From: an uncultured Planctomycetota bacterium | Lineage (GTDB): Bacteria; Planctomycetota; UBA1135; UBA2386 | Direction of reading: 5' to 3' | Length of the DNA stretch: 64,000 bases | Assembly (NCBI GenBank): GCA_963823025.1 | Contig: CAWGKH010000021.1 | Coordinates: forward strand, 17,955-81,954 | Shown here: positions 26,782 to 43,824 of the stretch, piece after piece | Position numbering within the stretch: the stretch's first letter is position 1 | Layout: each line of letters begins with the position of its first letter | Translations under genes and position numbers: made by a program | Notes under the pieces: generated by a model | What the model saw: the letters and a program-made list of their open reading frames with translations, nothing else | What the model was told of the DNA's origin: nothing | The model's database searches: none

Positions 26782-27831
26782 ATGACGAACGTCCTTCACT
26801 CCGCGACGATCCTCATCGCGCTCGCCTGCTGCTGCACCGCGCCGCTCGCCGCACAGGACAGCCCGCCTCCCGACAGCCCGCCTCCCGACCGTGTCGAACT
26901 CAGCAACGGTGACGTGCTGACCGGCAAGCTCCTCGCCGTCACCGCCGAGAACGTCAAGTTCCACACCGAGGCGCTCGGTGACGTCGAGATCCCGATCGCG
27001 GAAATCGTGCAGCTCTCCTCCGGGCACGCGGTCCAGTTGCAGACGGCGTCCGGCGAGCGCGTGGACGGCCGCGTCGCCGCGCTCGAGAACGGCGCGCTGC
27101 GCGTGCAGGTCGACTCCCAGGAACGGTCCTTCCCGGTGGCCGACCTCGTCGAGCGCCGGCCGCCGGTCCAGTGGACCGGGTCGGTCGCCATCGGCGGCAA
27201 CTACTCGACCGGCAACACCGAGCGCCGCGGCGCGGCGGTGAGTGCGAACGCGGTCCGTCGCACCGACGACACGCGCTTGACCGGTTCGTTCCAATGGGTC
27301 TACGCGGACGACCGCGACCCGACGACGCGCGAGTGGAACCTCACCCAGCGCCGCATCTACGGCGCCGCGGAGTACGACTACTTCCTGAGCAAGAAGCTGT
27401 TCGCGTACGGGCAGGGCAGCCTCGAGAACGACGTCTTCAAGGACCTCGACCTGCGCTCGACGATCGGTGTCGGTCTCGGTTACCAGCTCTACGAGCAGGA
27501 CGACTTCAAGCTCTCGGCCCAGGCCGGTATCTCATACGTCGACGAGAAGCGCAGCATGAGTCCCGACCAGAGCTACATCGCCGCACGCGTCGGCTACGGG
27601 CTCGAATGGAAGCCGATCGAGTCGCTGACGGTCCTGTCCGACGGCCAGATCTTCCCGAGCCTCGAGGACAAGGACGACGTCTACGCGCGCAACGACCTGC
27701 GGCTCCGGATGAAGGTGAACGAGGCGCTGTTCGCGCAGTTCCAGTGGATCGTCGACTGGGACAACTCGCCCGCCCCGGGCACGGATCCGACCGACCAGCA
27801 GTTCTTCCTGTCGGCCGGCTGGTCGTTCTGA
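26782..27831 (+). CDS. DUF481 (YdiY-like) outer-membrane beta-barrel protein
   Basis: Signal peptide, DRVELSNGDVLTG domain, WTGSVAIGGNYSTGNTE, GVGLGYQ, C-terminal AGWSF. A 15-bp tandem duplication encodes DSPPP twice. Confidence 0.88.
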   Translation: MTNVLHSATILIALACCCTAPLAAQDSPPPDSPPPDRVELSNGDVLTGKLLAVTAENVKFHTEALGDVEIPIAEIVQLSSGHAVQLQTASGERVDGRVAALENGALRVQVDSQERSFPVADLVERRPPVQWTGSVAIGGNYSTGNTERRGAAVSANAVRRTDDTRLTGSFQWVYADDRDPTTREWNLTQRRIYGAAEYDYFLSKKLFAYGQGSLENDVFKDLDLRSTIGVGLGYQLYEQDDFKLSAQAGISYVDEKRSMSPDQSYIAARVGYGLEWKPIESLTVLSDGQIFPSLEDKDDVYARNDLRLRMKVNEALFAQFQWIVDWDNSPAPGTDPTDQQFFLSAGWSF

Positions 27832-27843
27832 GGCCGGACCGCG

Positions 27844-28611
27844 ATGCGTGACCGTGTCCTCGAGGTCCTGCGCCACACGGCCGCCGCCTACGGCGACGAC
27901 CTTCCGCTGCCGCGGAGCGCGGCCACGCCGTTCGCCGCCGCACCGCCGCACACCGCGACCTCGCCGCGGCCGGACCGACCGGCCCCAGTCGACACCGGCG
28001 AGCTGCCGCTCGACCTCGACGCGCTGCGGCCGATCGCGCTCGCCTGCACCCGCTGCAAGCTCCATGCAGCGCGCAAGCACGTCGTCTTCGGCGAGGGCGA
28101 TCCGAACGCGCGCGTGATGTTCGTCGGCGAGGCGCCCGGCGCGCGCGAGGACGAACAGGGCCGGCCGTTCGTCGGTCCGGCCGGACAGCTCCTCGACCGC
28201 ATCATCGAGAACGCGATGGGCCTCGCCCGGAGCGACGTCTACATCGCCAACGTCAACAAGTGCCGGCCGCCGGGCAACCGCAACCCGGAACCCGACGAGA
28301 TCGCCGCGTGCGTGCCGTACCTGCGCGCTCAGGTCCGGGCGATCCGCCCGGCGGTGCTCGTCACGCTCGGCCGCGTGGCCGCGCAGAACCTGCTCGGCAC
28401 GGCGCAGCCGATGCGCGCCCTCCGCGGCCGGGACCTGAGCTACGAAGGCATCCCCGTGGTCGCGACCTGGCACCCCGCCTACCTGCTCCGACAGCCGAGT
28501 GCCAAGCGCGAGACCTGGGAAGACGTGAAGCGGGTCAACCGGTTGCTCGGCCGACCCGAGATCCCGACCCGCGCCGCCCCCGGCGAAGCCGATCGCCGAC
28601 CTTCGCCTTGA
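27844..28611 (+). CDS. Uracil-DNA glycosylase, family 4 (Fe-S)
   Basis: [49 protein letters not shown]. Confidence 0.95.
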
Positions 28612-28636
28612 CCCTTGTGCGGCACAGGGCTACGGT
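28608..28636 (+). promoter_or_regulatory. Candidate sigma-70-type promoter TTGACC-N17-TACGGT for secretin 1
   Basis: Near-consensus -35, 17-bp spacer, TAnnnT -10, about 80 bp upstream of ATG 28718; GGGAG Shine-Dalgarno present. Confidence 0.5.
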
Positions 28637-28717
28637 CCGCCGCGCTGCACGCTCGGGCCACCCCCTCTGGCCCGCTCGCCCCATAGGCTGCCACACCTCT
28701 CGCCTCAGGGAGACAGA

Positions 28718-31360
28718 ATGAAGACCCGATTCCTCCTCCGAGGACTTGCCGTCCCCGCAGCGTCCCTGCTGTTCGCGTGCTCCGGCACGCAGGGAACGGG
28801 CGCGGACGAGACCGGCGGCGGCGCACCGTCCGCCACGACGTCCGAAGGCCAGACCGCCCAGCAGCCCGGCGCGACGGGCGAAGCACCGTCCGCGCAGGGC
28901 CAAGGCGACCAGGAGCCCTCCGAGTCGGTCGATCGCCAGCGCCGCGAACTGCTCGTCAAGCAGGGCCTGGAGCGCGCGCGACGCGCGATCCAGCTCAAGC
29001 TGTACGAGGACGCGCTGCACGCGTCCGCCGATGTCCTCGAACTCGACCCGAACAACGACGAAGCGCGCGGCATCTTTCTCTCGGCGGAAGAGGTTCTCGG
29101 CGACGAGGTCTCCCGCATCGCGGAGAAGACCCAGGACAAGATCTTCCGGGCCCGCATCGCGATCGAACGGGACCGCTACCGCGCCATGCAGCTCGTGCAG
29201 CAGGCCGACGCGAAGATCGACCTCGGTCGGTACGGCGACGCCATCGACGACTACGACAAGGCGCTGCTGATCCTCAAGTACAACCCGTGGCTGACCCCGG
29301 GCAACGAGCTCTCGCGCACGATCGAGGCGAAGCTGAAGTCGGCGCAGCAGGGTCAGGTGCAGGCGTTGCGCGACAACGAGGAAGCCGCGCAGGCGAAGTC
29401 GCGCGCCGATCTGGAGGAGTCGGAGCGCCAGCAGCGCCTCGAGCGTGAGGAGCGCGTGAAACGCCTGATGATGCAGGCCAACCGCGACTTCCAGCTCGGC
29501 AACTTCCGCTCTTCGATCCAGCTCCTCGACCAGGTGCTGCGCCTCGAGCCGAACAACGCCGGTGCGCTCCAGCTCCACGACCTGGCCAGCCGGGCGAATC
29601 ACGACAACAACGTCGACCTGGCGAAGCAGCGCTGGAAGCAGGAGTGGGTCAAGACGTTCGACGACCTGAACATGTCGAGCATCCCGCAGTCGGACACCGT
29701 GGTGTTCGACCTCAAGCGTTGGGCCGAGGTCAGCCAGCAGAAGCCGTTGTCGTTCACGCCACCGGAAGAGCTCGAGAGCCCCGAGGAGCGCGCGATCATG
29801 GCGTCGCTCGAGAGCACCAGCCTCGAGCACAACTTCTCGTCGGCGACCATCAACGACTGGTCGAAGTTCTACGCGAGCGTGACCGGCGTCAACTTCGTCG
29901 TCGGTCCGTCGGCGCGCGAGCTGGACGAGGCGACGACGACGCTGACCGACTTCCACCTTCCCAACATGTCGGTGAAGAAGGCGCTCAACGTCATCTCGAG
30001 CCAGACCGGCGTGAAGTGGGTCGTGCGCGATGGTGTCGTGTTGCTGGTGTCGTCCGAGACGCCGACCGGCAAGACCTATCTCTACCCCTACCCGGTCCGC
30101 GACCTCGTGCTCGGCGTGAAGAGCCACCCCGGCCCGAAGCTGAAGCTGTCCGTCCCCGGCGAGGAGTTGGATGCGTTCTTCGACGAAGAAGAGCCCGCGC
30201 CGACCGTCGTCGACGACGGTCGCCTCCAGGACCTGATCCGGAACAACATCGAGCCGACGACCTGGGATGAGGGCATCAGCACGATGAGCTACCAGGCCGG
30301 CGTGCTGCTCGTCCGCAGCACCCGGTCGGTGCACCAGAAGATCGACAAGCTCCTGACGGACCTGCGCCGCGCGGTCGGCATCCAGGTGGACGTCGAAGCC
30401 CGGTTCCTCCGCGTCGAGGACAACTTCCTCGAGGACATCGGCGTCGACTTCCGCGGTCTGGGCGACCAGTCGTCCCAAGGCATCCCGGGACGCGGCCTCG
30501 AGAAGAACAACAACAGCAACGTCCGCTTCAACGACTTCGGTCGCCCGGAGCTGATCACCCCCGCGTCCCCGGGCGAGATCGGCACCGGCACCGAGCCCGG
30601 CGTGTTCTTCGACGATGGCGGCGACGGCGACCTGCTCGCCCGCACCCAGAACCTCTACGACCACGCCCTGGGCGGCGGCCCGAACGGCATGAACAACGCC
30701 GGCGGTCTCTCGCTGCAGTACGCCTACCTCGGCGACACCGAGGTCGAGGTCATTCTCCGCGCGGTCCAGAAGCAGGAGCGGAGCGAGCAGATCGTCGCGC
30801 CGCGGCTGCTGGTGTTCAACAACACGCGCGCGCACATGCAGGCGCTGCGGGCCACGTCCTACATCGCCGACTTCGGCGTCGAGATCGCGCAGGCTGCCGC
30901 GGTGGCGAATCCGGAGATCAACGTGGTGCGCGACGGTGTCGTGCTGGACGTCCGGCCGGTGGTGTCGGCCGACCGCCGCTTCATCACGATGGAGCTACGG
31001 CCGACCGTGATGGAGCTGCTGACGCCGATCCCGACGTTCACCACGACGCTCGGCACGGGCCAGCCGGTCTCGATCCAGCTCCCGACCGTCACCCTGCAGA
31101 GCGTCCGGACGACGGTGACGATGCCCGACGGCGGCTCGATCCTCCTCGGCGGCATGAAGCTGGCCGAACGGCAGAAGCAGGAGTCGGGCGTGCCGATCCT
31201 GAAGGATCTGCCCGGCCTGTCCTTCTTCTTCAGCCGGAAGGGCAGCTACATCGCCAACCGCAAGATCATCGTGCTGATGCGCGCGCGGATCATCGTCCCC
31301 GCGGAACTGGAGCCGGACGTCCCGGCGGACGAGTACCAGACGCTGCTGCAGAACGGCTGA
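28718..31360 (+). CDS. Lipoprotein secretin 1 with N-terminal TPR/coiled-coil region
   Basis: Lipobox LLFAC; secretin motifs QVDVEARFLRV, PRLLVFNNTRA, DGVVLDVRPVVSADRRFITMELRP, TTVTMPDGGSILLGG, GVPILKDLPGLSFFF. Confidence 0.92.
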   Translation: MKTRFLLRGLAVPAASLLFACSGTQGTGADETGGGAPSATTSEGQTAQQPGATGEAPSAQGQGDQEPSESVDRQRRELLVKQGLERARRAIQLKLYEDALHASADVLELDPNNDEARGIFLSAEEVLGDEVSRIAEKTQDKIFRARIAIERDRYRAMQLVQQADAKIDLGRYGDAIDDYDKALLILKYNPWLTPGNELSRTIEAKLKSAQQGQVQALRDNEEAAQAKSRADLEESERQQRLEREERVKRLMMQANRDFQLGNFRSSIQLLDQVLRLEPNNAGALQLHDLASRANHDNNVDLAKQRWKQEWVKTFDDLNMSSIPQSDTVVFDLKRWAEVSQQKPLSFTPPEELESPEERAIMASLESTSLEHNFSSATINDWSKFYASVTGVNFVVGPSARELDEATTTLTDFHLPNMSVKKALNVISSQTGVKWVVRDGVVLLVSSETPTGKTYLYPYPVRDLVLGVKSHPGPKLKLSVPGEELDAFFDEEEPAPTVVDDGRLQDLIRNNIEPTTWDEGISTMSYQAGVLLVRSTRSVHQKIDKLLTDLRRAVGIQVDVEARFLRVEDNFLEDIGVDFRGLGDQSSQGIPGRGLEKNNNSNVRFNDFGRPELITPASPGEIGTGTEPGVFFDDGGDGDLLARTQNLYDHALGGGPNGMNNAGGLSLQYAYLGDTEVEVILRAVQKQERSEQIVAPRLLVFNNTRAHMQALRATSYIADFGVEIAQAAAVANPEINVVRDGVVLDVRPVVSADRRFITMELRPTVMELLTPIPTFTTTLGTGQPVSIQLPTVTLQSVRTTVTMPDGGSILLGGMKLAERQKQESGVPILKDLPGLSFFFSRKGSYIANRKIIVLMRARIIVPAELEPDVPADEYQTLLQNG

Positions 31361-31382
31361 CCGGCCCACGCCCGCCACACGC

Positions 31383-31409
31383 TGCCGGCGACCCGCGCGG
31401 TCGCCGGCA
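31383..31409 (+). terminator. 11-bp perfect stem hairpin after secretin 1, no U-tract
   Basis: TGCCGGCGACC-cgcgc-GGTCGCCGGCA, starting 22 bp after the stop codon. Confidence 0.5.
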
Positions 31410-31411
31410 CG

Positions 31412-31440
31412 TTGGAATTCGCTGAACCGGTCGCTAGACT
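31412..31440 (+). promoter_or_regulatory. Candidate sigma-70-type promoter TTGGAA-N17-TAGACT for the TPR-ExbBD genes
   Basis: Hexamers at 31412-31417 and 31435-31440, 17-bp spacer, intergenic. Confidence 0.55.
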
Positions 31441-31616
31441 CCGGCGTTCCCCCGCGTGATGCGATCGTCCCCTCCGATCGCCACAGCCGGCGAATGCCCC
31501 CGCCGGCCCAGTCCCCTCAGCACAGATTCGACGGCACGGACCCGGCGATGGCGTCGGAACGCGTGTCGTTCCAGACCCCTTTTTCCGCAATCCCCGAGCC
31601 AGGGGGCCCCCTCTTG

Positions 31617-34511
31617 ATGAAGCTTGGAAGGTCCGTGTTGGCGGCCGCGATCGCCGGCGCCCTCCTCACCCTGACGGCGCCGGCCGGAGCGCAGGCCTCG
31701 AAGCCGGACAAGAAGCTCGAGCGCGACATCTCCTTCGTCCGCAAGCTCGCGACCGACCTCCGCTTCATCGGGCTCGCGCAGCAGGAAGTGGAGACGCTGA
31801 AGGCCTCGCACCGCGATTCGGCGGAGTTCAAGGAGGTCTTCCAGCTCGGGATCGAGATCGCGTTGATCGGCGCCCGCTCCCACCCGAACCGTGAGGAGCA
31901 GCGCACGCTGTTCAAAGAGGCTCTCGACCAGTCGCGCGAGTTCATCGACCGGTACGGGAACGACCCGGTCGCCGACCGCGCGCGGCTGACGCTGATCGAG
32001 GCGTGCTACGAGTACGGCAACTTCCTGACCGAGGAGATCGAGATCGCCCGGCAGGAGTCCCCCGACCGGGTCGCCGACCTCGAGGAAGCCGCTCAAAAGG
32101 TGTTCCGCGACGGCATCGAGGCGAGCGACACGGTGATGTCGAAGCTCGCCACTGCGAAGGACGAGCCCGGCTCGGACGCGCAGCGCGACTACTACCGGAC
32201 GTGGCTCTACAAGGCCATCCTCCAACGCGAGATGGCCCGGGCGGTCAAGCGCGACCGCGACGCACTCGCCGCGATCTCGCGCTCCACGTTCGAAGACCTG
32301 ATCCTCGACGTCGGTGAGGAGAGCCTGCTCGGGCTCCGCGCCTGGTTCGAGATGTCGAAGATCAACGAGGTCCTCGGCAACTACGACGGCGCCTTCTCCG
32401 ACTACAAGGACACCATCGACAGCATCCAGACCGCGCTCGATGACGCGCAGCAGCTCGGCTTGCGCCGCGACGCGCAGGAGGTGCTGTTCCAACTGATGCA
32501 GGAGGCCTACGACCGCGGCACGAACGCGCTGTTCACGCAGGGCAAGATCCAGGAGACCCTGCAGTTCATCGAGAAGTTCCGCAGCGACCTCCAGAAGTAC
32601 GGCGAGGAGGGCGCCGATCCGTTCGACATCGCGAGCCCGCAGTACGGGCATCCCGTGTTCCTCACACAGGCACGCGCGATGGCGGAGTCCGGCGATCCCG
32701 AGTCCGTCGCCCGTGCGCTCGAACTCGCGCAGAAGATCAACAGCGCGCACCCGAACGACATCGTCGGCATCAAGGCGAAGAACCTGATCCGCGACATCCT
32801 CGCGGTCCAGAGCAACCTCGTCAGCGGCGCGCTCCTGTACGAGGTCGCGAAGGGCGACTACCAGAACCGCGACTACGAGCGCGCGCTGAAGGAGTTCAAG
32901 CGCGCCTACGCGGCGATGACGCCCGAGGAGAAGACCAAGGACGGCCTCGAGCTGTGGACCTCGATGGGTCGCAGCTACGGGCTGCTCAACCGCTACCTCG
33001 AGGCGACGCTCGCCGCGTCGTACGGGCTGGAGCATCACGGCGACGACGCACCGGAGGAAGCACAGGTCGCCGCCGCGGACGTGCTCGAGAAGGCATGGCC
33101 GCTCTATCGCCGCGACACCAAGAACGATGACGCACCGCCGATCGAGCAGCTCGGTCAGCAGGTGAACGACCTGCTGAAGAAGTTCGGCGGCGAGGGCAGC
33201 GAGGCGAAGGCGCTCTGGCGTGAAGGCAACCGCCTCCTGCAGGAAGGCAAGTACGCGGAGGCCGCGGCGCGCTTCAAGAAGGTGCCCGCCGACACGGCCT
33301 ACCACGAGGTCGCGCAGGGCCGCATCGTCGTCGCCCTCGAGGTCGCCGGCGACTACAAGGCCGCGCGCCAGGCGATCGAGGACTACCGCACCTGGGTGAA
33401 GTCCCCCGAGGCGCAGCTCCCCGACGACCGCCGTGATCTCGTCGACAACCGGAAGCAGACGATCGCGACGATCGAGTTCTACGACGGCTACATGGACTAC
33501 AAGGAGGCGACCGGATTCGGCGACGAGAAGAAGGCCCAGCCGACGAGGTACGAGCCGACGATCCGGAAGCTCGAAGGCTGGCTCGACAAGTACGCCGCCG
33601 ACGGCCCGAACTACGTCGGTCGCTGCTACGACATGATCTCGCGGCTCTACGCGGCGCTCGGCCAGATCGACAAGGCGGAGGAGAACTACCGCACCCTGCG
33701 CCGGCTCGAGCCGAACAGCCCGCTCGTCCCGCTGCTCGCGACCCAGGTCTTCGCATCGCACTTCGAGCAGGTGAAGCGGCTCGAGGTCGAGCTCAAGGCG
33801 CTGCGCGAGAAGGGCGCGCCGGAGAGTGAGTGGAAGCCCGTCACGCAGAAGCTCGACGACGCTCGACGCGCCGCGATCGCGAGCGGCCTCGACTACATGC
33901 ACAACGCGGCCAACCCGCAGTACGGCGTGCTGTTCAACACGATGCTCCTCGCGCACGATCTGCAGGACTGGAAGACCGTCGAGGACGTCGGCCACAAGAT
34001 CGTCGAGCTCTACGCCGACTCGAAGGATGACGGCCCGAAGGTCGAGCAATGGGTCAACCCCATGCTCGGCGAGGCGCTCCTGCGGCAGCGCCGTTTCAAG
34101 GAGGCTGTCGAGCTGCTCGAGAAGGCCGCGAAGGCCAACCCGAACAACTACCCGGTGAAGCGCTACCTCGACCTCGCGCAGGGTGGCTGGTTCGAGTTCG
34201 ACTCGGCCGGCAACCTGGTCGAGGTCGCCGGACTGGACCAGCCGATCCCCGCCTACAACCGGCACTGGAACGAGTACAAGGTCTACGCGCTCAACCCCAA
34301 CCGCGGCGTCGATCAGTTCAGCCTCGACTGGTACCAGTTCTACCTCGAGTGCTACATGTTCGCGAAGCGGGCGGCGCGCAAGGACAGCAAGTACGCCGAC
34401 TACGCGAAGTCGCTCTACAACATCGCGCGGTCCACCGACGACTTCGCCACCCTCAAGAAGAAGGGTGACGAGGGGATGCGCATCTACGGCCTCTTCAACG
34501 CGATTCGGTGA
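31617..34511 (+). CDS. Large exported TPR/alpha-solenoid protein (about 964 aa)
   Basis: Signal peptide MKLGRSVLAAAIAGALLTLTAPAGAQ; all-helical with TPR-like units (e.g. LGEALLRQRRFKEAVELLEKAAKANPNN). Confidence 0.85.
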   Translation: MKLGRSVLAAAIAGALLTLTAPAGAQASKPDKKLERDISFVRKLATDLRFIGLAQQEVETLKASHRDSAEFKEVFQLGIEIALIGARSHPNREEQRTLFKEALDQSREFIDRYGNDPVADRARLTLIEACYEYGNFLTEEIEIARQESPDRVADLEEAAQKVFRDGIEASDTVMSKLATAKDEPGSDAQRDYYRTWLYKAILQREMARAVKRDRDALAAISRSTFEDLILDVGEESLLGLRAWFEMSKINEVLGNYDGAFSDYKDTIDSIQTALDDAQQLGLRRDAQEVLFQLMQEAYDRGTNALFTQGKIQETLQFIEKFRSDLQKYGEEGADPFDIASPQYGHPVFLTQARAMAESGDPESVARALELAQKINSAHPNDIVGIKAKNLIRDILAVQSNLVSGALLYEVAKGDYQNRDYERALKEFKRAYAAMTPEEKTKDGLELWTSMGRSYGLLNRYLEATLAASYGLEHHGDDAPEEAQVAAADVLEKAWPLYRRDTKNDDAPPIEQLGQQVNDLLKKFGGEGSEAKALWREGNRLLQEGKYAEAAARFKKVPADTAYHEVAQGRIVVALEVAGDYKAARQAIEDYRTWVKSPEAQLPDDRRDLVDNRKQTIATIEFYDGYMDYKEATGFGDEKKAQPTRYEPTIRKLEGWLDKYAADGPNYVGRCYDMISRLYAALGQIDKAEENYRTLRRLEPNSPLVPLLATQVFASHFEQVKRLEVELKALREKGAPESEWKPVTQKLDDARRAAIASGLDYMHNAANPQYGVLFNTMLLAHDLQDWKTVEDVGHKIVELYADSKDDGPKVEQWVNPMLGEALLRQRRFKEAVELLEKAAKANPNNYPVKRYLDLAQGGWFEFDSAGNLVEVAGLDQPIPAYNRHWNEYKVYALNPNRGVDQFSLDWYQFYLECYMFAKRAARKDSKYADYAKSLYNIARSTDDFATLKKKGDEGMRIYGLFNAIR

Positions 34512-34522
34512 GGAGCCCTTCG

Positions 34523-35677
34523 ATGACGCGACAGCAGAGAATCCAGATGAAGAACCAGATCGCGCTGTTCCTCGTGGCGAGCGTGCTCGGCACGGCCGTC
34601 GCGACGGCTCAGGACAAGATCAACGACGTCATCCAGACGACCCAGGGCCAGCGCATCCGCGGGGTGGAGGTCACGGCGACCACCAGCAAGACGATCAGCT
34701 ACACAAAGGGCGAGGAGTCCAGCGATCTCCCCGCGACGCGGCTGCTGGACATCGTCTGGTCGGATCCGCCGGAGGAGTACGCGCTGGCGCGTGCCGCGCT
34801 CCGCAACGCTGACTTCGCGACGGCCGCCAACATGTTCACGGAGGCCGCCAACAAGACCAAGCGCGAGCCGCTCGAGGCCGAGTGTCGCTACCAGGCCGCG
34901 GCCGCGCTCGTGCGCGGTGCGGGCACCGACACCGCGAAATCGCAGGAAGCGGTGAAGAGCCTCAACGACTGGCTCGCGAAGTGGCCCGACGGCTACCGTG
35001 CGCCAGACGCACAGCTGATGCTCGGACGAGCCTACGTCGCGGCCGGCGATCCGGCGCAGGCGCAGACGACCTTCAAGAAGTTGTCGGACGACACGCTGAA
35101 GAACGGCTGGGCGCCCATCTGGAACGCTCGCGCGCGCTTCGAGCTCGCTCGCGCGCTGCTCGCGGCTGGCGACTTCGACGGGGCGCGGAACGCGTTCCGG
35201 GCCGCGTCCTCCGCGGCCGACACCGCCGCCGGCCAGGACGGGTCCTCGGAGGAGATCGTCTCGCTCCGCGCGGACGCCGCGGTCGGGATCGGCGAGACGA
35301 TGGTCCGCGAGGGCAAGTTCGAGGACGCGCTCGCCTACTTCCAGGACCTCGTCCATCAGGCCAAGAGCGACGCGATCCGCGCTGCGGCGAAGGCGGGTCA
35401 AGGCGAAGCGCTGTTCCTCAAGGCGCAGAAGGCCGGCACGGTCGACGGACTCCGCGAGGCACAGATCGCCCTTGCCGAGGCCGGCATGCTCGACAGCACC
35501 GCGGGCGAGACGACCGCGAAGGCGCTCTACTACTCGGGCGAGGTCCTGCTCGCGCTCGGCCCCGACCACGAGGCGTCGACCTACAAGCAACGCGCGGCGG
35601 ACTACTTCCAGTCGGTGGTGAAGAACTTCCCGAACACCGTCTGGGCGCCGAAGGCCGCGGAGGCGGCCCGGCAGTGA
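34523..35677 (+). CDS. Exported TPR protein (outer-membrane-assembly/CpoB-like repeats)
   Basis: Signal peptide ending ATAQ, DVIQTTQGQRIRG beta domain, TPRs, C-terminal FQSVVKNFPNTVWAPKA. Start is 34523 or 34547. Confidence 0.82.
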   Translation: MTRQQRIQMKNQIALFLVASVLGTAVATAQDKINDVIQTTQGQRIRGVEVTATTSKTISYTKGEESSDLPATRLLDIVWSDPPEEYALARAALRNADFATAANMFTEAANKTKREPLEAECRYQAAAALVRGAGTDTAKSQEAVKSLNDWLAKWPDGYRAPDAQLMLGRAYVAAGDPAQAQTTFKKLSDDTLKNGWAPIWNARARFELARALLAAGDFDGARNAFRAASSAADTAAGQDGSSEEIVSLRADAAVGIGETMVREGKFEDALAYFQDLVHQAKSDAIRAAAKAGQGEALFLKAQKAGTVDGLREAQIALAEAGMLDSTAGETTAKALYYSGEVLLALGPDHEASTYKQRAADYFQSVVKNFPNTVWAPKAAEAARQ

Positions 35678-35853
35678 AGCACACCACGAGCGCCTCGGGC
35701 ATGCGACTCGAGACCTCGGAAACCACGGTTTTCGGCGGCGAGGGGCTTTCGCTCGGCGCTGCCGTTGCGGACACTCCTCCGGCCCTGTTCGGTTCGAACC
35801 CCTCCCACGGGCACGCCCCCCGCCCGTCAACCCCTGCAAGACACAGACGGCTC

Positions 35854-36585
35854 ATGTTGCGGATCCAGAACCCCCTCCGCGCCGCTCTCCCGGCGCTGAT
35901 GCCCCTCTTCGTGGCCTCGGTCGCGTTCGCTCAGGACAAAGGCGAGGCGCCGCTGACCGCTCCGAATCCGGTCGCCGAAGCCTTCCGGAACGCCGGCGTC
36001 ATCGGCTACGTCATCGTCGGTCTGTCGATCGTCGCGGTCGCGCTGATCATCGAGAACTTCGTCGCGATCAAGCGCGACAAGCTCGCCCCGCCCGACGTCA
36101 TCGACGAGTTGGAGGCCCTGTTCGAGGAAGAGAACTTCCAGGAGGCGATGGACCTCTGTGAGAGCGAGCGCGTCTACCTGACCAACGTCGTCCAGGCCGG
36201 ACTCTCGAAGCTCGGCCACTCGTTCGACACGATCCAGCAGGCCGTGCGCGAGATGGAGGAGGAAGAGACCGTCAAGCTCTTCCAGAAGATCGGCTGGCTC
36301 AGCCTGATCGCCGCGTCGGCGCCGATGCTCGGTCTGCTCGGCACGGTGACCGGTATGTTCGTGACGTTCGGCCAGATCGCACTGGCCGGCGGCTCGGTCA
36401 GCCCGGCCCAGCTCGCCGGTGGTATCAAGCTGGCCCTCGTGACGACCATCTTCGGTCTGATCGTGGCCCTGCCGACCGGCGCGTTCTTCTTCACGTTCCG
36501 CAACAAGGTGGTGCGGACCGCGATCGAGGTCAACGCGATCGCCGAAGACCTGTTCGAGCGCTTCCGCACCGCGAACAAGGGCTGA
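35854..36585 (+). CDS. MotA/TolQ/ExbB proton-channel protein
   Basis: APMLGLLGTVTGM and GGIKLALVTTIFGLIVALP motifs; N-terminal signal-like extension ending AFAQ. Confidence 0.95.
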   Translation: MLRIQNPLRAALPALMPLFVASVAFAQDKGEAPLTAPNPVAEAFRNAGVIGYVIVGLSIVAVALIIENFVAIKRDKLAPPDVIDELEALFEEENFQEAMDLCESERVYLTNVVQAGLSKLGHSFDTIQQAVREMEEEETVKLFQKIGWLSLIAASAPMLGLLGTVTGMFVTFGQIALAGGSVSPAQLAGGIKLALVTTIFGLIVALPTGAFFFTFRNKVVRTAIEVNAIAEDLFERFRTANKG

Positions 36586-36725
36586 TGCCTGGACCCGTCG
36601 CGTCCCTTCCCCCGAACCAGCCGGCGGCGATGAACCCCCCGGTGGGTCTGATCGTTGCGTGAGGGCTCGGCCGGGCGACCCCCCCCCCGGCCGCGCCGAC
36701 ACCACCCGACACCGAGACAGACGAC

Positions 36726-37253
36726 ATGTCAACGCAGTCCGAACGAGCGCAGCAGGAAGTGGAGCTGGACATGACGCCCATGATCGACTGCGTCTTCCTG
36801 CTGATGATCTTCTTCGTGCTGGTCATCGACCTGAGCCAGAAGAACCTCGAAGACCTGATCCTGCCGAAGGCGAAGTACGCGGTGCCGGACGAGAATCCGC
36901 CCGATGTGCGCCCGATCATCAACATCACGCAGGACGGGCACATGGTCTACAAGGGCAACACCTACTACGACCCGGCCCAGAAGGACAATATCAGCGGCTT
37001 GAAACAGATGCTCGTCGAGTGGAAGCGCGACCTCCCGCTCAAGAAGGAGCCGCAGAACATCGGCGGCCACATGGTCGAGCTCGTCAACGACCCGGTCCTC
37101 GTGCGCGCCGACAAGTGGACTGAATGGCACTACGTCGGCGTGTTCATGACCGCTTGCAGCCAGCCCGAGGCCGCGTTCTGGAAGCTCGAGCTGGCGATGT
37201 CGGAGAAGGACAAGGAAGAGCAGATGCTCAGGGGGCGGGGTATCGGCAACTGA
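36726..37253 (+). CDS. ExbD/TolR family protein 1
   Basis: LDMTPMIDCVFLLMIFF with the conserved TM Asp; PVLVRADKWTEW. Confidence 0.93.
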   Translation: MSTQSERAQQEVELDMTPMIDCVFLLMIFFVLVIDLSQKNLEDLILPKAKYAVPDENPPDVRPIINITQDGHMVYKGNTYYDPAQKDNISGLKQMLVEWKRDLPLKKEPQNIGGHMVELVNDPVLVRADKWTEWHYVGVFMTACSQPEAAFWKLELAMSEKDKEEQMLRGRGIGN

Positions 37254-37272
37254 CCCGTTCCCGCCGTTCAGT

Positions 37273-37300
37273 GAGCCTCTGAGCAGGAGCCTCTGAGCAG
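37273..37300. repeat. Exact 14-bp tandem duplication (GAGCCTCTGAGCAG x2)
   Basis: Read directly between ExbD1 and ExbD2. Confidence 0.9.
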
Positions 37301-37342
37301 GCGCCCCCGACCGACGAACGAAACAGCGCGAGAGACGAATCG

Positions 37343-37873
37343 ATGGCCAGCCACCTGAAAGACGCCGAAGAGGAAGCCAAGCCGGACATGACGCCGATGA
37401 TCGACGCCGTGTTCCTGCTGATCATCTTCTTCCTGTGCATCGACTTCAAAACGCTCGAAGCGAAGCTGCCTGCGTATCTGCCGAAGGACAAGGGCTCGCA
37501 GGCGACGTCGTCGCCGCCGGTCGAGCAGCTCTCCCTCAAGATCCTCAACGACGAGTGGGGCCGGGAAGTGCCGCGCATTCCGGGCAAGGCCAAGCCGTTC
37601 GCGCTGATCGGCCACAAGGTCCACTGGCTGCTCGGCCCGAAGAAGTTCACCGAGCTGACCGAGCTCGTCGATGAGCTCGAGCGCATCGCGAGCGACCCGC
37701 GCCAGCGCGTCCCGGACGACAAGAATCCGGGCCGCATGAAGAAGAAGCCGATCGTGATCGAGCCGCAGCCAGGCGCCACCTACGGCGACGTCGCGACGAC
37801 GGTCGACGCCGTGACCAAGGCCGGCTTCGAGGAGATCAACTTCGGCGGCGGACGCGGCACGCGTCAGCAGTAG
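37343..37873 (+). CDS. ExbD/TolR family protein 2
   Basis: PDMTPMIDAVFLLIIFF; YGDVATTVDAVTKAGFEEINF. Confidence 0.93.
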   Translation: MASHLKDAEEEAKPDMTPMIDAVFLLIIFFLCIDFKTLEAKLPAYLPKDKGSQATSSPPVEQLSLKILNDEWGREVPRIPGKAKPFALIGHKVHWLLGPKKFTELTELVDELERIASDPRQRVPDDKNPGRMKKKPIVIEPQPGATYGDVATTVDAVTKAGFEEINFGGGRGTRQQ

Positions 37874-37875
37874 CC

Positions 37876-37935
37876 TGGCCGCGTCCGCGGTCGCTTGGCC
37901 GCGTCCGCGGTAGTCGGGCCGCGCCCGCGGTGAGC
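37876..37935. repeat. Three 20-bp tandem units, each with an internal palindrome CCGCG-nn-CGCGG
   Basis: tggccgcgtccgcggtcgct / tggccgcgtccgcggtagtc / gggccgcgcccgcggtgagc. Confidence 0.85.
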
Positions 37936-38069
37936 GGTCCGCGCGGCGCCCGTCGCGCGCGCGGTGCGCACGCACGACGATCCGCGGAAGGCCTCGTCGT
38001 TGAACCGGGCGCCGCTCGCCCGCGTTCTCGACGCGCCCCCATCCCGTATGGCTCGCCCGGGGACGCGCG

Positions 38070-38600
38070 ATGACGACACCGGTTTCGGCATCGGAGCACG
38101 CCGCGAAGGCCGACACCACGCCGATGATCGACGCGGTGTTCCTGCTGATCGTGTTCTTCCTCTGCCTCGACTTCCGCACGCTGGAGTCGAAACTGGCCGC
38201 CTACCTGCCTCGCGACTCGGGTGGTGGCGTCGACATGCCGCTCCCGGTGGAGCCGCTCACCGTCGCGGTCATCGTCGACGACTGGGGAACGGCGGTGCCG
38301 CGGCTCTCCGGTCGGGAGCAACCCTTCGCGCTGGTCGGTCACCGGATCCACTGGCGCCTCGGTGCGAAGCGATTCGCCGAGCTCCGGGACCTGGTCGACC
38401 AGCTCGCGCGCCTCGCGCGGGACCCGCACCAGCGCGTACCCGACCTCGCGATACCCGGCCGCAGCAAGCAGCGGCCGGTCGTCATCGAGCCCTGGCCCGG
38501 CGCCACCTATGGCGACGTCGCGACGACGGTCGACGCGGTGAGGCAGGCCGGATTCGACGAGATCCAGTTCGGCGGCGGTCGCGGCGCGCGCCAGCGGTGA
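38070..38600 (+). CDS. ExbD/TolR family protein 3 (close paralogue of protein 2)
   Basis: TPMIDAVFLLIVFF; same length (176 aa) as 37343..37873 and shares PGATYGDVATTVDAV and FGGGRG with it. Confidence 0.92.
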   Translation: MTTPVSASEHAAKADTTPMIDAVFLLIVFFLCLDFRTLESKLAAYLPRDSGGGVDMPLPVEPLTVAVIVDDWGTAVPRLSGREQPFALVGHRIHWRLGAKRFAELRDLVDQLARLARDPHQRVPDLAIPGRSKQRPVVIEPWPGATYGDVATTVDAVRQAGFDEIQFGGGRGARQR

Positions 38601-38986
38601 GCGGGCCTCGCCGAGCTCGGGAGGTTCACCCGCACGCCGAGCGGCCCCCGCCCGACCCGGGATCGCAGCCTCCCTCGCCGACGCGGCGTCCGGCCGCAAC
38701 CAGAGGGGCACGCCCACTTTCGGAGGTCGCGCCCCGCGGCGATCGGCCGCGCCTTCGTGTCGAACAAGGTCTGGCATCGGGCCGCTGCCACGGCTAGCTT
38801 GTCGCGACACCTGGACGGGATCCCTCCCCCGCCCCTCGCTGACCCCCCCCCCTTCCCTGCCGATGCCGATCGCCGTCTCGCTCGCCCGAGTGACCCGGTC
38901 CTCGCGCCGCGCAGGGTCGCCCGAAATCGACCCGCGCTCGCCCGGTTCGCCACGCTCCGGACGTGCCCTGAACGACACAGGCTGAG

Positions 38987-41599
38987 ATGACTTTCGAACC
39001 CCGTCGTCTTCTCGCAGGAGCCCTGCCTGTCCTGTTCCTCTGCGTCACCGCGTGCTCCGCTCCGGAGTCCGCGGCTCGCTCGTCGGAGGACAACGCGCCG
39101 ATGGCGAACGAGCCGTCCGCGGACCATGCGAACGAGCCGTCCACCGCTGCCGGCGCGACGCAGGAGCCACAGGATCAGGGTGTTCCCGATCAGGTGCGCC
39201 AGGAGCGCAACAAGCTGCTCGTCGAGCAGTACCTCTCCAACGCCGACCGCCTGCGTCGCCAAGGGGACGAGGCGTCGCTGGAGGCTGCGCGCATCGAGCT
39301 GCTGAAGGCCCAGTCGATCGCACCGAGCGATCCGCGCGTGCAGCACCTGCTCGAGCAGGTCGCCACCGAGCTGAACCTCCCGGCCGCGACGCCGGAGACG
39401 TTCGCCGAGGTGCAGGCCCAGCAGCAGAAGATCCACGAGCAGCGCCGGAAGGCCGAAGTGCGTTCACTGCTCGACCAGGGTCAGCAGGCACTCGCGGACA
39501 ACGACTTCCGCACCGCGATCGACGACTTCCGTCGCGCGGTGTTGAACGTCGAAGTCGGTCGCTACGTCGCGTGGGGGGATCTCGACCCACGCGCGCACGA
39601 ACTGCTCGACAAGGCGACCAAGGCGCGCGACGCCGCCGAGGCGGAAGCCACCGCGGCCGCACGTCGCCAGGCTGCGCAGCAGCGTCGCGAGGCCGAGCAG
39701 GCCGACCAGGCGCGCCGCCGCGCGCGCGTCGACGGCCTGATGGCGCAGGCGAGTCGGGCGTTCGAGCGCAAGCAGTTCGCGCTGTCGCGTGACCTCGCCT
39801 TCCAGGCGATGACGGTCGAGCCCAACAACCAGATGGCGCGCGACCTGCACAATGCCGCGATCAAGGCGGCGCGCGAGACGCGCACCGACGAGTACTACCG
39901 CCAGATGGCCACCTCCATCCGTCGGATGAAGGAGGAGGCCGAGAGCTTGCGCATCCCGCAGACCGACATCCTCTGGGTCGATCAGCAGGTCTGGGACAAG
40001 GCGCTGCACCGCTCGGTGCCGAAGAGCTCGGGTGCGACGCTCGATCCCGACAACCAGGCGCTGCGCAAGCAGCTCGGGGAAGCGACGATCAGCGGCCTGA
40101 CGTTCACCGAGGAGGACGGCGCCTACGGGGACGTCGTGCGGCGCGTCTCCACGATCACGAACATCCCGATGATCATCACGCCCGAGGCGCGCGAGACGAT
40201 CGACAGCGAGGACCTCCGGTTGGCGATGGACGTGACCGCGCCGATCTCGGTGCAGAACTTCCTCAACCAGATGGTCTCGCGCAGCGCGGAGCTGGCGTGG
40301 ATCGTCCAGAACGGGGTCGTCGAGATCACGACGAAGGCCAAGGCCGGCGGCGCGAACTACCTCGACGAGAAGGACGTTCGCGACCTCGTGTTCCCGAAGA
40401 CGGTGTTCCTGCCGCCGACGATCCGCGACATCCCGAACGGTGAGGACACCGGCGGCGCCCCGCGCACCGGTGGCGAAGGCGAGGACAAGACGTTCTTCGT
40501 CGAGCTCGACACCCTGGTCGCGAACATCAAGGACGCGACCGACCCGAACTACTGGGACAGCGAGGGCGGTGGCAGCATCGACCAGGCGGAGTCCGGGTAC
40601 CTGCTCGTCACCGCCAACCCGGACATGCAGGCGCGCGTCGACAAGATCCTGGACGACCTCCGGCGATTCGCGACGACGGTCGTGACGATCGAATCCAAGT
40701 TCCTGCAGATCACGCAGAACTTCCTGCAGCAGATCGGCGTCGACTTCCGCGGCCTTGGCGGCTCGGGGTCGAAGGGCACGGTCGCCCAGCTCGACGACGT
40801 CACGAACGGCCTCAACGACAACGCGTCGCGCGGCCTCGACAACTCGGGCACCCAGGACCCGGCAGCCAGCCCGATCGCCGGCGCGTTCTACAACGACGGT
40901 GGCGACGGCGACGTCCGCGCACGCAGTGAGAACTTCTTCACGAACTCACTCGGTCGCGCGCTCAGCACCAACGGTGGCGCGACCGCCGCGATCGTGTTCC
41001 TGAACGACCTCCAGATCCAGGCGATCATCCGCGCCGTGGAGAAGAAGGAAGACGTCCAGGAGCTGAACGGCCAGAACCTGACCGTGCTCAACAACGAACG
41101 CGGTCACGTCGCGATCATCAACCAGACCGCCTACGTCCGTGACTTCAACGTCGAGGTGGCCCAGGCGGCCTTCATCGCCGACCCGGTCATCGACGTGATC
41201 CAGGACGGCGTCGTGCTCGATGTCCGGCCGACGATCAGCTTCGACCGCAAGCGCATCACGCTCGACATGCAGCCGACCGTCGCCGACCTGGTGCGGCCGA
41301 TCGCGACCTTCTCGACGTCGCTCGCCGGCACGACCCAGCCGGTCACGCTGCAGCTCCCGCAGCTCCTCGTGCGCTCGTTCGCGACGACCGTCGAGGTGCC
41401 GGACGGCGCCTCGGTGCTGATCGGCGGCCTCCGCACGGTGAGCAACAAGGAGCGTCGCGCGCAGATCCCCATCCTCGCCGACATCCCGCTGATCGCGTTC
41501 TTCTTCAAGGAGGAAGGCGTGTCCGACGAGAACAGCTCGCTGATGGTGATGGTCCGCGCGACGATCACGGACGTCAAAGACGTGATGGACAACCGCTGA
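38987..41599 (+). CDS. Lipoprotein secretin 2 with N-terminal TPR/coiled-coil region
   Basis: Lipobox VTAC; VVTIESKFLQI, LTVLNNERG, DGVVLDVRPTISFDRKRITLDMQP, TTVEVPDGASVLIGG, IPILADIPLIAFFF. Confidence 0.92.
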   Translation: MTFEPRRLLAGALPVLFLCVTACSAPESAARSSEDNAPMANEPSADHANEPSTAAGATQEPQDQGVPDQVRQERNKLLVEQYLSNADRLRRQGDEASLEAARIELLKAQSIAPSDPRVQHLLEQVATELNLPAATPETFAEVQAQQQKIHEQRRKAEVRSLLDQGQQALADNDFRTAIDDFRRAVLNVEVGRYVAWGDLDPRAHELLDKATKARDAAEAEATAAARRQAAQQRREAEQADQARRRARVDGLMAQASRAFERKQFALSRDLAFQAMTVEPNNQMARDLHNAAIKAARETRTDEYYRQMATSIRRMKEEAESLRIPQTDILWVDQQVWDKALHRSVPKSSGATLDPDNQALRKQLGEATISGLTFTEEDGAYGDVVRRVSTITNIPMIITPEARETIDSEDLRLAMDVTAPISVQNFLNQMVSRSAELAWIVQNGVVEITTKAKAGGANYLDEKDVRDLVFPKTVFLPPTIRDIPNGEDTGGAPRTGGEGEDKTFFVELDTLVANIKDATDPNYWDSEGGGSIDQAESGYLLVTANPDMQARVDKILDDLRRFATTVVTIESKFLQITQNFLQQIGVDFRGLGGSGSKGTVAQLDDVTNGLNDNASRGLDNSGTQDPAASPIAGAFYNDGGDGDVRARSENFFTNSLGRALSTNGGATAAIVFLNDLQIQAIIRAVEKKEDVQELNGQNLTVLNNERGHVAIINQTAYVRDFNVEVAQAAFIADPVIDVIQDGVVLDVRPTISFDRKRITLDMQPTVADLVRPIATFSTSLAGTTQPVTLQLPQLLVRSFATTVEVPDGASVLIGGLRTVSNKERRAQIPILADIPLIAFFFKEEGVSDENSSLMVMVRATITDVKDVMDNR

Positions 41600-41607
41600 C
41601 AGGGTGT

Positions 41608-41671
41608 GCCTTCTTCGCGGCACGCCTTCTTCGCGGCAGGCCTTCTTCACAGTGTGCCTTGTTCACCGGCG
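41608..41671. repeat. Four degenerate 16-bp tandem units (GCCTTCTTC core)
   Basis: gccttcttcgcggcac / gccttcttcgcggcag / gccttcttcacagtgt / gccttgttcaccggcg, just after the secretin 2 stop. Confidence 0.85.
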
Positions 41672-41947
41672 CACGCTGTCCGCGCCGCGCCGGCGGCGCC
41701 CGGGTCAGGAGCCGAGCGGTAGCCTGGACCCGGTCACCGGCTGCCAGGCCGTGAGGGTCCGCATCACGGGCTCTCGCCCGCTCGGCGGCGCCCGCTCGGC
41801 GGGCGCGGATCCCCCGCCGCGGGCCCGGCGCCGTCGCGCCGGACTCGTCGTCCGTACGGTGTCATCGGCTTCCTGACGAGGGCTGGCGCGAGCCCGCCTC
41901 GACCGGCAAGCTCAGCGCCCCCCCCACCCACCGACAGGTCTCCCACG

Positions 41948-42679
41948 GTGCCCCGCCCGCTCGACGCGATCTTCTTCGACATCGACGACACCCTGTTCTC
42001 CACATCGGTGTTCGCCGACAAGGCACGGCGTGCCGCGGTGGACGCGATGATCGGAGTCGGGTTGCGCTCATCCCGCGAGGAGTGCTTCCGCGAGCTCACC
42101 GAGGTCGTGCACGAGTTCAGCAGCAACTACGGCAGCCACTTCGACAAGCTGATCGAACGACTGCCCATCGAAGCGAGCGCGGGCCTGAACAAGGACATCC
42201 TCGTCGCTGCCGGAGTCGTCGCCTACCACGAGACGAAGTGGCGCGAGCTGAAGGTCTACGACGACGTCTACGAGGTCCTCGAGTGGCTCGCCGGCCATAC
42301 CCTGCTGCGCGGCATCATCTCGGCGGGGCTCGGCATCAAGCAGGCGGAGAAGGTCATCCGGCTGAAGATCTACGAGTTCCTGACGCCCGGGGCGATCTTC
42401 TTCACCGAGCAGATCGGCATCAGCAAGCCGAACCCGAAGCTCTATCGCCGCGTGCTGCGTGAGCTGGGGTTGGAGCCGGAGCGCGTGATGTACGTCGGGG
42501 ACAATCCGGTGAACGACGTCGATCCGGCCAACGCAGTGGGCCTCGTGACCGTGCACAACCGGCGATCCGGACGACACGCGAAGCTCGAGGGCAAGAGCCG
42601 GCCGGACTTCGAGATCTCGACGTTCTACGACCTGCGGGACGTCCTGCAGGGCGAGTTCGCGCTGACCGCCACTTCGTGA
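41948..42679 (+). CDS. HAD-superfamily hydrolase, subfamily IA
   Basis: FFDIDDTL motif I, ISKPNP motif III, YVGDNPVNDV motif IV. Confidence 0.93.
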   Translation: MPRPLDAIFFDIDDTLFSTSVFADKARRAAVDAMIGVGLRSSREECFRELTEVVHEFSSNYGSHFDKLIERLPIEASAGLNKDILVAAGVVAYHETKWRELKVYDDVYEVLEWLAGHTLLRGIISAGLGIKQAEKVIRLKIYEFLTPGAIFFTEQIGISKPNPKLYRRVLRELGLEPERVMYVGDNPVNDVDPANAVGLVTVHNRRSGRHAKLEGKSRPDFEISTFYDLRDVLQGEFALTATS

Positions 42680-42703
42680 GCAAACGCGCCCGCGGGAGCC
42701 GCC

Positions 42704-43801: not shown

Positions 43802-43824
43802 CGTGTCTCCGTTGAGGCGAGGTG

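Follow-up and report, generated by a model that had tools for sequence, protein, structure and literature searches.

A conserved planctomycete gene cluster combining two lipoprotein secretins, two TPR proteins and an ExbB/ExbD-type motor

A 64,000-nucleotide stretch of DNA from an uncultured Planctomycetota bacterium (contig C21, positions 17955-81954; hereafter the window) carries eight genes on one strand that encode, in this order, a lipoprotein secretin (S1), two exported tetratricopeptide repeat (TPR) proteins (T1 and T2), an ExbB/TolQ-type subunit, three ExbD-type proteins (D1, D2 and D3) and a second lipoprotein secretin (S2). Our analysis shows that the cluster is real, of old origin and widespread, and that its combination of genes occurs in no described secretion or uptake system that we found. 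It is best filed among the envelope systems that use a proton motor, with secretins as the outer-membrane partner, and it possibly represents a new class of secretin systems. Judged from the sequences, the proposal that the eight genes encode one machine driven by the proton-motive force and acting on the secretins as channels has an even chance of being correct.

Gene content of the cluster

Gene calls together with Pfam and NCBIfam matches bore out the original prediction of eight genes on the forward strand at the positions given in Table 1, and each of its components (two liposecretins, two TPR proteins, ExbB and the ExbDs) was supported by domain matches of its own. The spacers between the cluster genes are 90-387 bp long, and the longest frame of T2 overlaps the stop codon of T1 by 4 nt; since the gaps are of this size and all eight genes have been assigned, there is no room for an additional gene in the cluster. 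The genome (5.1 Mb, about 70% G+C) is 79.85% complete, and the nearest protein relatives come from metagenome-assembled genomes (MAGs) of Planctomycetota.

Very long antisense frames cover real genes, among them 28535-30835 and 31434-34265 on the reverse strand (766 and 943 amino acids); they are explained by the high G+C content, which likewise inflates open-frame lengths in genome searches. A scan of positions 27000-44000 yielded no promoter-like sites (0.8 in shuffled sequences) and six terminator-like sites (7.4 in shuffled sequences), none of the latter lying on the forward strand inside the cluster, and was uninformative. Among sequencing runs, three of DNA contain 0.05-0.11 of the sampled sequence words, and none of RNA is listed.

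Table 1. Genes of the cluster, its two conserved neighbors and examples of the sulfatase-fold gene in related loci (aa, amino acids).
Feature	Position	Strand	Description
S1	28718-31360	+	TPR-liposecretin, 880 aa; Secretin PF00263 5.3e-24, 85.1 bits, residues 682-859; TPR matches
T1	31494-34511 (probable start 31617)	+	large exported TPR protein; 1005 aa in longest frame, 964 aa from probable start
T2	34508-35677	+	exported TPR protein, 389 aa; TPR_6 6e-14; Sec-type signal peptide
ExbB	35854-36585	+	ExbB/TolQ-type proton-channel subunit, 243 aa; MotA_ExbB PF01618 8e-25
D1 (ExbD type 1)	36726-37253	+	175 aa; PF02472 2.6e-14
D2 (ExbD type 2)	37343-37873	+	176 aa; PF02472 1.2e-14
D3 (ExbD type 2 duplicate)	38070-38600	+	176 aa; PF02472 2.6e-11
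S2	38987-41599	+	liposecretin, 870 aa, S1 paralog; Secretin 9.8e-24, 84.3 bits; lipobox VTAC
HAD-IA hydrolase	41948-42679	+	PF00702 6.9e-19; TIGR02253 3.8e-45, below cut-off; no signal peptide
Family-4 uracil-DNA glycosylase (UDG)	27844-28611	+	TIGR00758 6e-64, above cut-off; 107 bp upstream of S1
Sulfatase-fold gene	L010:10554-12467
Sulfatase-fold gene	L016:10470-12476
Sulfatase-fold gene	L017:10694-12610
Sulfatase-fold gene	L034:12827-14728

Conservation of the cluster in Planctomycetota

Two sets of related loci were mapped by TBLASTN with the window proteins and three diverged versions of them. The family-stratified set (L001-L040) held one S1 match per genome, drawn from some 30 planctomycete families, and the close-relative set (L041-L120) held the 80 best loci from a public species-genome collection, all of them from uncultured MAGs. 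Loci were counted only if at least 9 kb of sequence was available downstream; this left 35 of 40 stratified and 54 of 80 close-relative loci, the other five and 26 being too short. The predicted linkage of the secretin with ExbB and ExbD proved to be conserved: both motor genes were found at 26 of the 35 stratified and 45 of the 54 close-relative loci, and S2 was also present at 25 and 45 of these, respectively. The recurrent same-strand order is S1-T1-T2-ExbB-ExbD(n)-S2, with T1 in the same slot in most related loci. Where the cluster is split, T1-T2-ExbB-ExbD stay together.

The family-specific N-terminal half of S1 (residues 70-560) has matches in 316 of the 401 Planctomycetota genomes sampled, usually two per genome. 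Among genomes of high quality it is present in 179 of 243, and in one family (f7) it was found in only one of 20 genomes. A strict ExbB ortholog (E <= 1e-48) is present in 188 of the 401 genomes, nearly always as a single copy. The secretin family and ExbB occur together in 183 genomes, ExbB alone in five, the secretin family alone in 133 and neither in 80, related genomes in this count not being independent. In five genomes that have no secretin of this family, the best ExbB identity is just 29-38%.

Secretins S1 and S2

Both S1 and S2 belong to the secretin superfamily, as they score above the Pfam cut-off for the Secretin domain (27.5 bits) and the AlphaFold2 model of S1 has the secretin fold with periplasmic N-domains. 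This model, built from a 40-row alignment, is of moderate confidence (mean pLDDT 70.6, low at residues 569-687) and consists of a disordered linker (about residues 17-68), a helical/TPR region (69-319), an N0-like domain (368-459), an N3-like domain (500-567) and a barrel reaching to about residue 860. The lipobox of S1 is LFAC (residues 18-21), and its residue C21 is at least 90% conserved (alignment A1). A Foldseek search with the model returned 44 matches with E <= 0.001, the top 40 of which are solved secretins of every class; BfpB was the best (3.3e-15), followed by Vibrio PilQ (1.4e-14), and InvG and PulD were found as well. A profile search of Protein Data Bank sequences ranked PilQ first (2.5e-19).

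None of the named secretin classes of NCBIfam (GspD, PilQ, MshL, SctC, Amuc_1098, PilN-IVB and HofQ) was matched above its cut-off by either protein. S1 matched the Amuc_1098 family (3.2e-36; 124.7 bits with a cut-off of 750, model positions 28-615) and MshL (4.2e-31), and S2 matched MshL (4.5e-32), GspD (5.3e-21) and the Amuc_1098 family (57 bits), all of them below cut-off; the MshL scores of the two proteins are 108-111 bits versus a cut-off of 250.2, and the remaining classes scored lower.

S1 and S2 are 29% identical. A FastTree phylogeny placed 72 proteins of the S1/S2 type apart from the genome's own GspD and PilQ (support 99) and united the S2-type proteins in one clade (support 100, 31 rows), the outgroup branches being long and the root within the S1/S2 family unsure. 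Since S2 forms one clade across these 31 rows, both paralogs have been kept since an old duplication.

Motor and TPR proteins

The ExbB protein has a signal peptide and three transmembrane segments. By Pfam, the cluster encodes the ExbB (PF01618) and ExbD (PF02472 in three genes) of a Ton system, whereas the equivalog cut-offs of NCBIfam are missed: ExbB matches tolQ (6.1e-17; 62.1 bits, cut-off 221) and exbB (1.8e-9), both far below cut-off, and the best NCBIfam match of D1 is TolR with 24.8 bits versus a cut-off of 127.3. In D1, the residues T17, I20, D21 and F24 are invariant among 34 orthologs (alignment A3), Asp21 lying in the transmembrane segment, and the transmembrane Asp21 of D2 is invariant as well (alignment A4, 31 rows). 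D3 is 61% identical to D2 and, by this resemblance, is a recent tandem duplicate of it. Three ExbD genes had been regarded as a trait of the system, which did not hold up. The commonest number is two, found at 18 of the 26 stratified loci that bear the motor and at 41 of the 45 close-relative ones; a third gene, present at seven and three of these loci, respectively, is a family-level duplication, and the copy number ranges from one to four.

T1 matches the Pfam families TPR_2 (6.8e-15), TPR_14 (2e-11) and TPR_19 (2.2e-9), and a Sec-type signal peptide can be read from its translation. An atlas search with T1 returned only TPR clusters, most commonly of Planctomycetota. The AlphaFold2 model of T2 (pLDDT 92.8) shows a small beta domain of five strands (residues 40-83) and, C-terminal to it, a TPR solenoid with some 15 helices (89-388). 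The only specific sequence match of T2 is to YbgF/CpoB, and it lies below cut-off (tol_pal_ybgF, TIGR02795: 4.7e-16, 59.5 bits with a cut-off of 90.1) and covers residues 89-193 only. A fold search with T2 gave generic TPR matches only; a scaffold chain of the Campylobacter flagellar motor at rank 35 was not specific.

Secretion, pilus, Ton and Tol genes elsewhere in the genome

The cluster had been predicted to lack an ATPase, a pilin and TonB. A Pfam-type search found no match to the T2SSE ATPase, the T2SSF platform protein or TonB_C on contig C21, and a general prepilin-motif expression, used in place of a dedicated tool, had no match in the six frames of the window and 15 genome-wide. The absence of TonB applies to the cluster, and TonB_C matches are present on other contigs. 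No von Willebrand factor A (vWA) domain was found among the eight window proteins, among the proteins encoded between ExbD and S2 in four relatives, or in the five genes downstream of the motor in one genome where it stands alone (G176).

Four secretin-domain genes of the genome score above cut-off. The secretin on contig C11, which matches GspD (1.1e-82), has genes for GspE, GspF and a GspG-like pseudopilin downstream of it, and the one on contig C14 lies downstream of PilM and matches PilQ (8.3e-71); both match these classes far better than S1 or S2 do. PilT is encoded on C14 about 4.5 kb past the PilQ-type secretin, with a gene for an Rne/Rng ribonuclease in between. Matches to T2SSE without an adjacent secretin were found at C11:479-483 kb and on C13. 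Grouping of S1 and S2 with complete type II secretion system (T2SS) or type IV pilus gene sets would have spoken against the original prediction; instead, the two proteins form a clade of their own, and both the gspD-E-F-G and the pilM...pilQ genes have their own secretins. A T2SS or a type IV pilus would be expected to encode an ATPase, a platform protein and prepilins with its secretin, and none of these was found with S1 and S2.

Each of the two other ExbB loci of the genome has a TonB_C match nearby, and the window ExbB has none. The cluster likewise encodes no Plug-domain receptor, and a TonB encoded elsewhere may serve its motor. The sole Plug-domain match of the genome (C7:323411) and a canonical ExbB-ExbB-ExbD-TonB_C locus are about 4.5 kb apart, both within C7:323411-330243, and a second locus, ExbB-ExbD-ExbD with a weak TonB_C match, was found at C9:446208-448484.

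TolB_N (PF04052) was detected in two of 61 sampled Planctomycetota genomes, in one of them above cut-off, and not in this 79.85% complete genome; the E. coli and Caulobacter controls were matched. General Pfam and NCBIfam scans, in which neither family was searched specifically, gave no TolA or Pal match among the eight proteins. By these searches, the Planctomycetota sampled here seem to be without a canonical Tol-Pal system.

Comparison with described systems

To our knowledge, a cytoplasmic ATPase powers every characterized secretin system (T2SS, type III secretion system, type IV and Tad pili, competence, filamentous phage), and all characterized motors of the ExbB/TolQ type work via a transducer resembling TonB or TolA, or via a dedicated partner. 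What the cluster shares with T2SS and type IV pili is a secretin barrel together with N0-like and N3-like domains, for which BfpB, PilQ, InvG and PulD are the best matches among solved structures, but it has no GspE/PilB, GspF/PilC, pseudopilin or PilMNOP. It resembles the Ton system in having ExbB and ExbD with a conserved transmembrane Asp, by which the proton-motive force would drive an outer-membrane protein; it differs in having no TonB and two heterologous types of ExbD, and its partner would be a secretin multimer rather than a plugged 22-strand barrel. The canonical ExbB-ExbD-TonB loci of the genome lie elsewhere. With Tol-Pal it has in common a TolQ/TolR-like motor, a possibly CpoB-like TPR protein (T2) and outer-membrane lipoproteins, but TolA, TolB and Pal are not encoded in the cluster and the Tol matches are below cut-off.

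A secretin with the layout and size of S1 is Amuc_1098 of Akkermansia muciniphila (Verrucomicrobiota, the same superphylum; NF042912), a protein of about 900 amino acids with N-terminal TPR and a C-terminal secretin domain. Neither window secretin belongs to that equivalog, given their scores of 124.7 (S1) and 57 bits (S2). Judging by the NCBIfam names, Amuc_1098 lies beside the PilM-like Amuc_1101 and counts as the secretin of a pilus, whereas the window secretins have ExbB/ExbD and TPR proteins as neighbors and the PilM of this genome sits with a different secretin, of the PilQ type.

Two further systems are similar in architecture. The Agl-Glt machinery of Myxococcus and relatives (AglR, AglQ, AglS, GltC/D/E) is likewise envelope-spanning and contains one TolQ-like protein, two different TolR-like proteins and exported TPR proteins; unlike the window cluster, it is described with a TonB-like protein, GltG, and its outer-membrane parts are Glt proteins of the beta-barrel/autotransporter type, not secretins (PMC3169522). 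This comparison is one of architecture as described. The nearest described gene arrangement is that of clusters of the Planctomycetes-Verrucomicrobia-Chlamydiae (PVC) bacteria, in which a TPR gene is followed by a tolQ-like gene, two heterologous tolR-like genes and a vWA transducer gene, with a function that is likewise unknown there (Mol Biol Evol 2025, PMC12204202). Those clusters differ from the window in having vWA, and secretins have no occurrence in the main text of that paper, on which the comparison is based. A full-text literature search, whose reach ended at supplements and some subscription journals, found no paper on a secretin-ExbBD-TPR cluster.

Proposed function and alternative explanations

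The favored reading is that of an envelope-spanning apparatus that would be inherited vertically in most Planctomycetota. At the inner membrane, an ExbB pentamer around a pair of ExbD proteins, probably a D1/D2 heterodimer, would turn the proton-motive force into mechanical work, as suggested by family membership and by the transmembrane Asp, which is invariant in D1 and D2 alike. T1 and T2 are the likeliest periplasmic adaptors in place of TonB/TolA, because they follow the motor where the cluster splits. The outer-membrane ends of the apparatus would be the two anciently duplicated lipoprotein secretins, with the helical/TPR, N0-like and N3-like domains of the S1 model, and the work of the motor would reach the N-terminal TPR and N0 domains of these proteins. 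It would thereby gate the S1 and S2 channels or push a macromolecule through them, with no cytoplasmic ATPase taking part. The tasks first suggested for the cluster (uptake, export or motility) are guesses. If so, this would be a new output for the family of 5:2 motors and a new energy source for the secretin family.

The predicted proton-driven secretin channel gains from the conserved linkage, the co-occurrence of secretin family and motor, and the separate secretin clade, and it loses from split and motor-less loci and from the conservation of unrelated neighbors. The points that weigh against it are as follows. S1 and S2 occur without ExbB at four of the 35 stratified loci, one of which (L040) keeps ExbD matches, and at nine of the 54 close-relative ones; S1 stands alone at five stratified loci and at no close-relative locus. 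S1 lies directly beside S2 with no motor at L007, L009, L103, L107 and L115-L119, which include families of the window's order; in two genomes with such loci the best ExbB is 36-37% identical and lies elsewhere beside ExbD, with a weak T2-like match adjoining it in one of them. One genome (G034) has T1-T2-ExbB-D-D-D-SU-S2 on one contig, SU being a sulfatase-fold gene, and S1 on another, and in G176 T1-T2-ExbB-D-D stands alone, megabases from S1. The 133 genomes with the secretin family and no strict ExbB ortholog count on the same side; some of them are explained by an ExbB that has diverged below the threshold, as at L033, where an ExbB of 39% identity lies beside S1. No known force transducer that would carry force to the secretin was found in the cluster. 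Finally, the closest characterized relative of the window secretins, Amuc_1098, which was located to the outer membrane by experiment, is regarded in the literature as the secretin of a type IV pilus (PMC4960237).

Adjacency itself is also weaker evidence than had been assumed, even though the linkage is conserved. UDG is the upstream neighbor at 14 of the 40 stratified loci and at 78 of the 80 close-relative ones, and the HAD hydrolase lies directly downstream of S2 at 28 of 40 (mostly on the same strand) and 34 of 80. Both proteins are without signal peptides and look cytoplasmic, so inherited adjacency could explain part of the synteny. Either this chromosome stretch is conserved beyond any obvious functional unit, or the HAD protein has an unseen role.

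These observations could also be read as an absence of any coupling, with S1 and S2 as pilus or secretion secretins of the PVC type whose ATPases are encoded elsewhere, T1-T2-ExbB-ExbD as a separate Ton/Tol-like module, and the two as neighbors merely because the stretch is rarely rearranged. We consider this unlikely, since 183 of the 188 genomes with a strict ExbB carry the secretin family and the motor module sits between the two paralogs, closely spaced and on the same strand, at loci of many families. Besides the conserved UDG and HAD, it would account for the adjacency of S1 and S2 without a motor in several lineages, for the motor alone in G176 and without S1 in G034, and for the 133 genomes just mentioned, and it could draw on the match of the S1 N-terminal region to the Amuc_1098 model, named for a type IV pilus outer membrane protein (3.2e-36). 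The T2SSE ATPases without an adjacent secretin on C11 and C13 would be available to such secretins; on the other hand, the T2SS and pilus clusters already own GspD and PilQ, and neither the window nor its contig showed a gene for a pilin, a platform protein or an ATPase.

Coupling of another kind, in which the cluster substitutes for Tol-Pal and is no channel, is likewise improbable in our estimate. The motor, the CpoB-like T2 and T1 would then pull on abundant lipoprotein secretins as outer-membrane anchors, serving outer-membrane tethering or constriction at division, or envelope lipid homeostasis. We know of no secretin that serves solely as an anchor, and secretins are gated multimeric channels. 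The best specific matches of three proteins do point to this system (T2 to YbgF/CpoB, ExbB to TolQ and D1 to TolR), but none of the NCBIfam Tol matches comes near its cut-off, and the cluster lacks genes for partners of the TolA, TolB or Pal type. The rarity of TolB_N in the phylum, with just two of 61 genomes and not this one, would leave a vacancy for such a substitute; however, the family f7, in which the system is found in one of 20 genomes, is also without TolB_N (none in two genomes), so it is no universal replacement. The cluster behaves like a part of the core genome, with housekeeping neighbors, presence in 316 of 401 genomes and mostly vertical clades, and the sulfatase-fold protein of many lineages described below is weakly similar to YejM/LapC; both agree with a Tol-Pal-like task. 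So does the abundance of Amuc_1098, which by far exceeds that of any other outer-membrane protein in Akkermansia, a level unusual for a pore dedicated to a pilus (PMC4960237).

A complex prediction of T2 (residues 25-389) and the periplasmic parts of D1/D2 versus S1 (330-560) gave a score of 0.00 (mark 0.32) and no verdict either way. A search for gene fusions between cluster components found none in the genomes G187, G376 and G092. Apparent fusions around ExbB in G187 and G376 were artefacts, T1/T2 and ExbB being in different frames in the former and T2 being followed by a stop in the latter; in G092, T2 and ExbB are in different frames.

The more far-reaching statement, that the cluster defines a new class of secretin systems, free of a cytoplasmic ATPase, in which an ExbB/ExbD motor without TonB powers a pair of TPR-liposecretins through TPR scaffolds, is put forward tentatively and is, in our view, rather doubtful. 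The cluster is no rarity in any case, as the secretin family was found in 316 and the motor ortholog in 188 of the 401 Planctomycetota genomes, and it could be a planctomycete route for moving macromolecules across the outer membrane. S1, S2, T1, T2, ExbB, D1 and D2 make up a testable set of genes. A paper of 2024 attributes planctomycete polysaccharide import to "an unknown mechanism" (PMC11131199). The subject also reaches past planctomycetes, as the relative Amuc_1098 outnumbers every other outer-membrane protein in a gut bacterium that is the subject of medical research (PMC4960237).

Additional and neighboring genes

At 15 of the 26 stratified motor-bearing loci, a gene for a protein of about 635 amino acids lies between the last ExbD and S2 (examples in Table 1). 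The protein has a sulfatase fold (PF00884, up to 1.3e-40, and PF01663) and a TPR tail, is membrane-anchored or a lipoprotein, and weakly matches the lipopolysaccharide-modulating YejM/LapC (9.6e-9). Its conserved TLP[AS]H motif looks to us like the site of a phosphodiesterase or phosphotransferase with a Thr nucleophile rather than that of a formylglycine sulfatase. The gene is missing from the window and from its family, and the genome, at 79.85% completeness, has no clear ortholog; the best TBLASTN match, on C11, is 30% identical over 131-223 residues.

A bolder suggestion as to the cargo is the scavenging of nucleic acids or phosphorylated polymers. It would fit the periplasmic, phosphodiesterase-like sulfatase-fold protein of many lineages together with the nucleotidase-like HAD hydrolase and UDG as neighbors. 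The HAD protein may be a ninth member of the operon or just a conserved neighbor. It also has weaker matches of the YjjG pyrimidine-nucleotidase type. UDG is an odd, long-lived neighbor for an envelope cluster.

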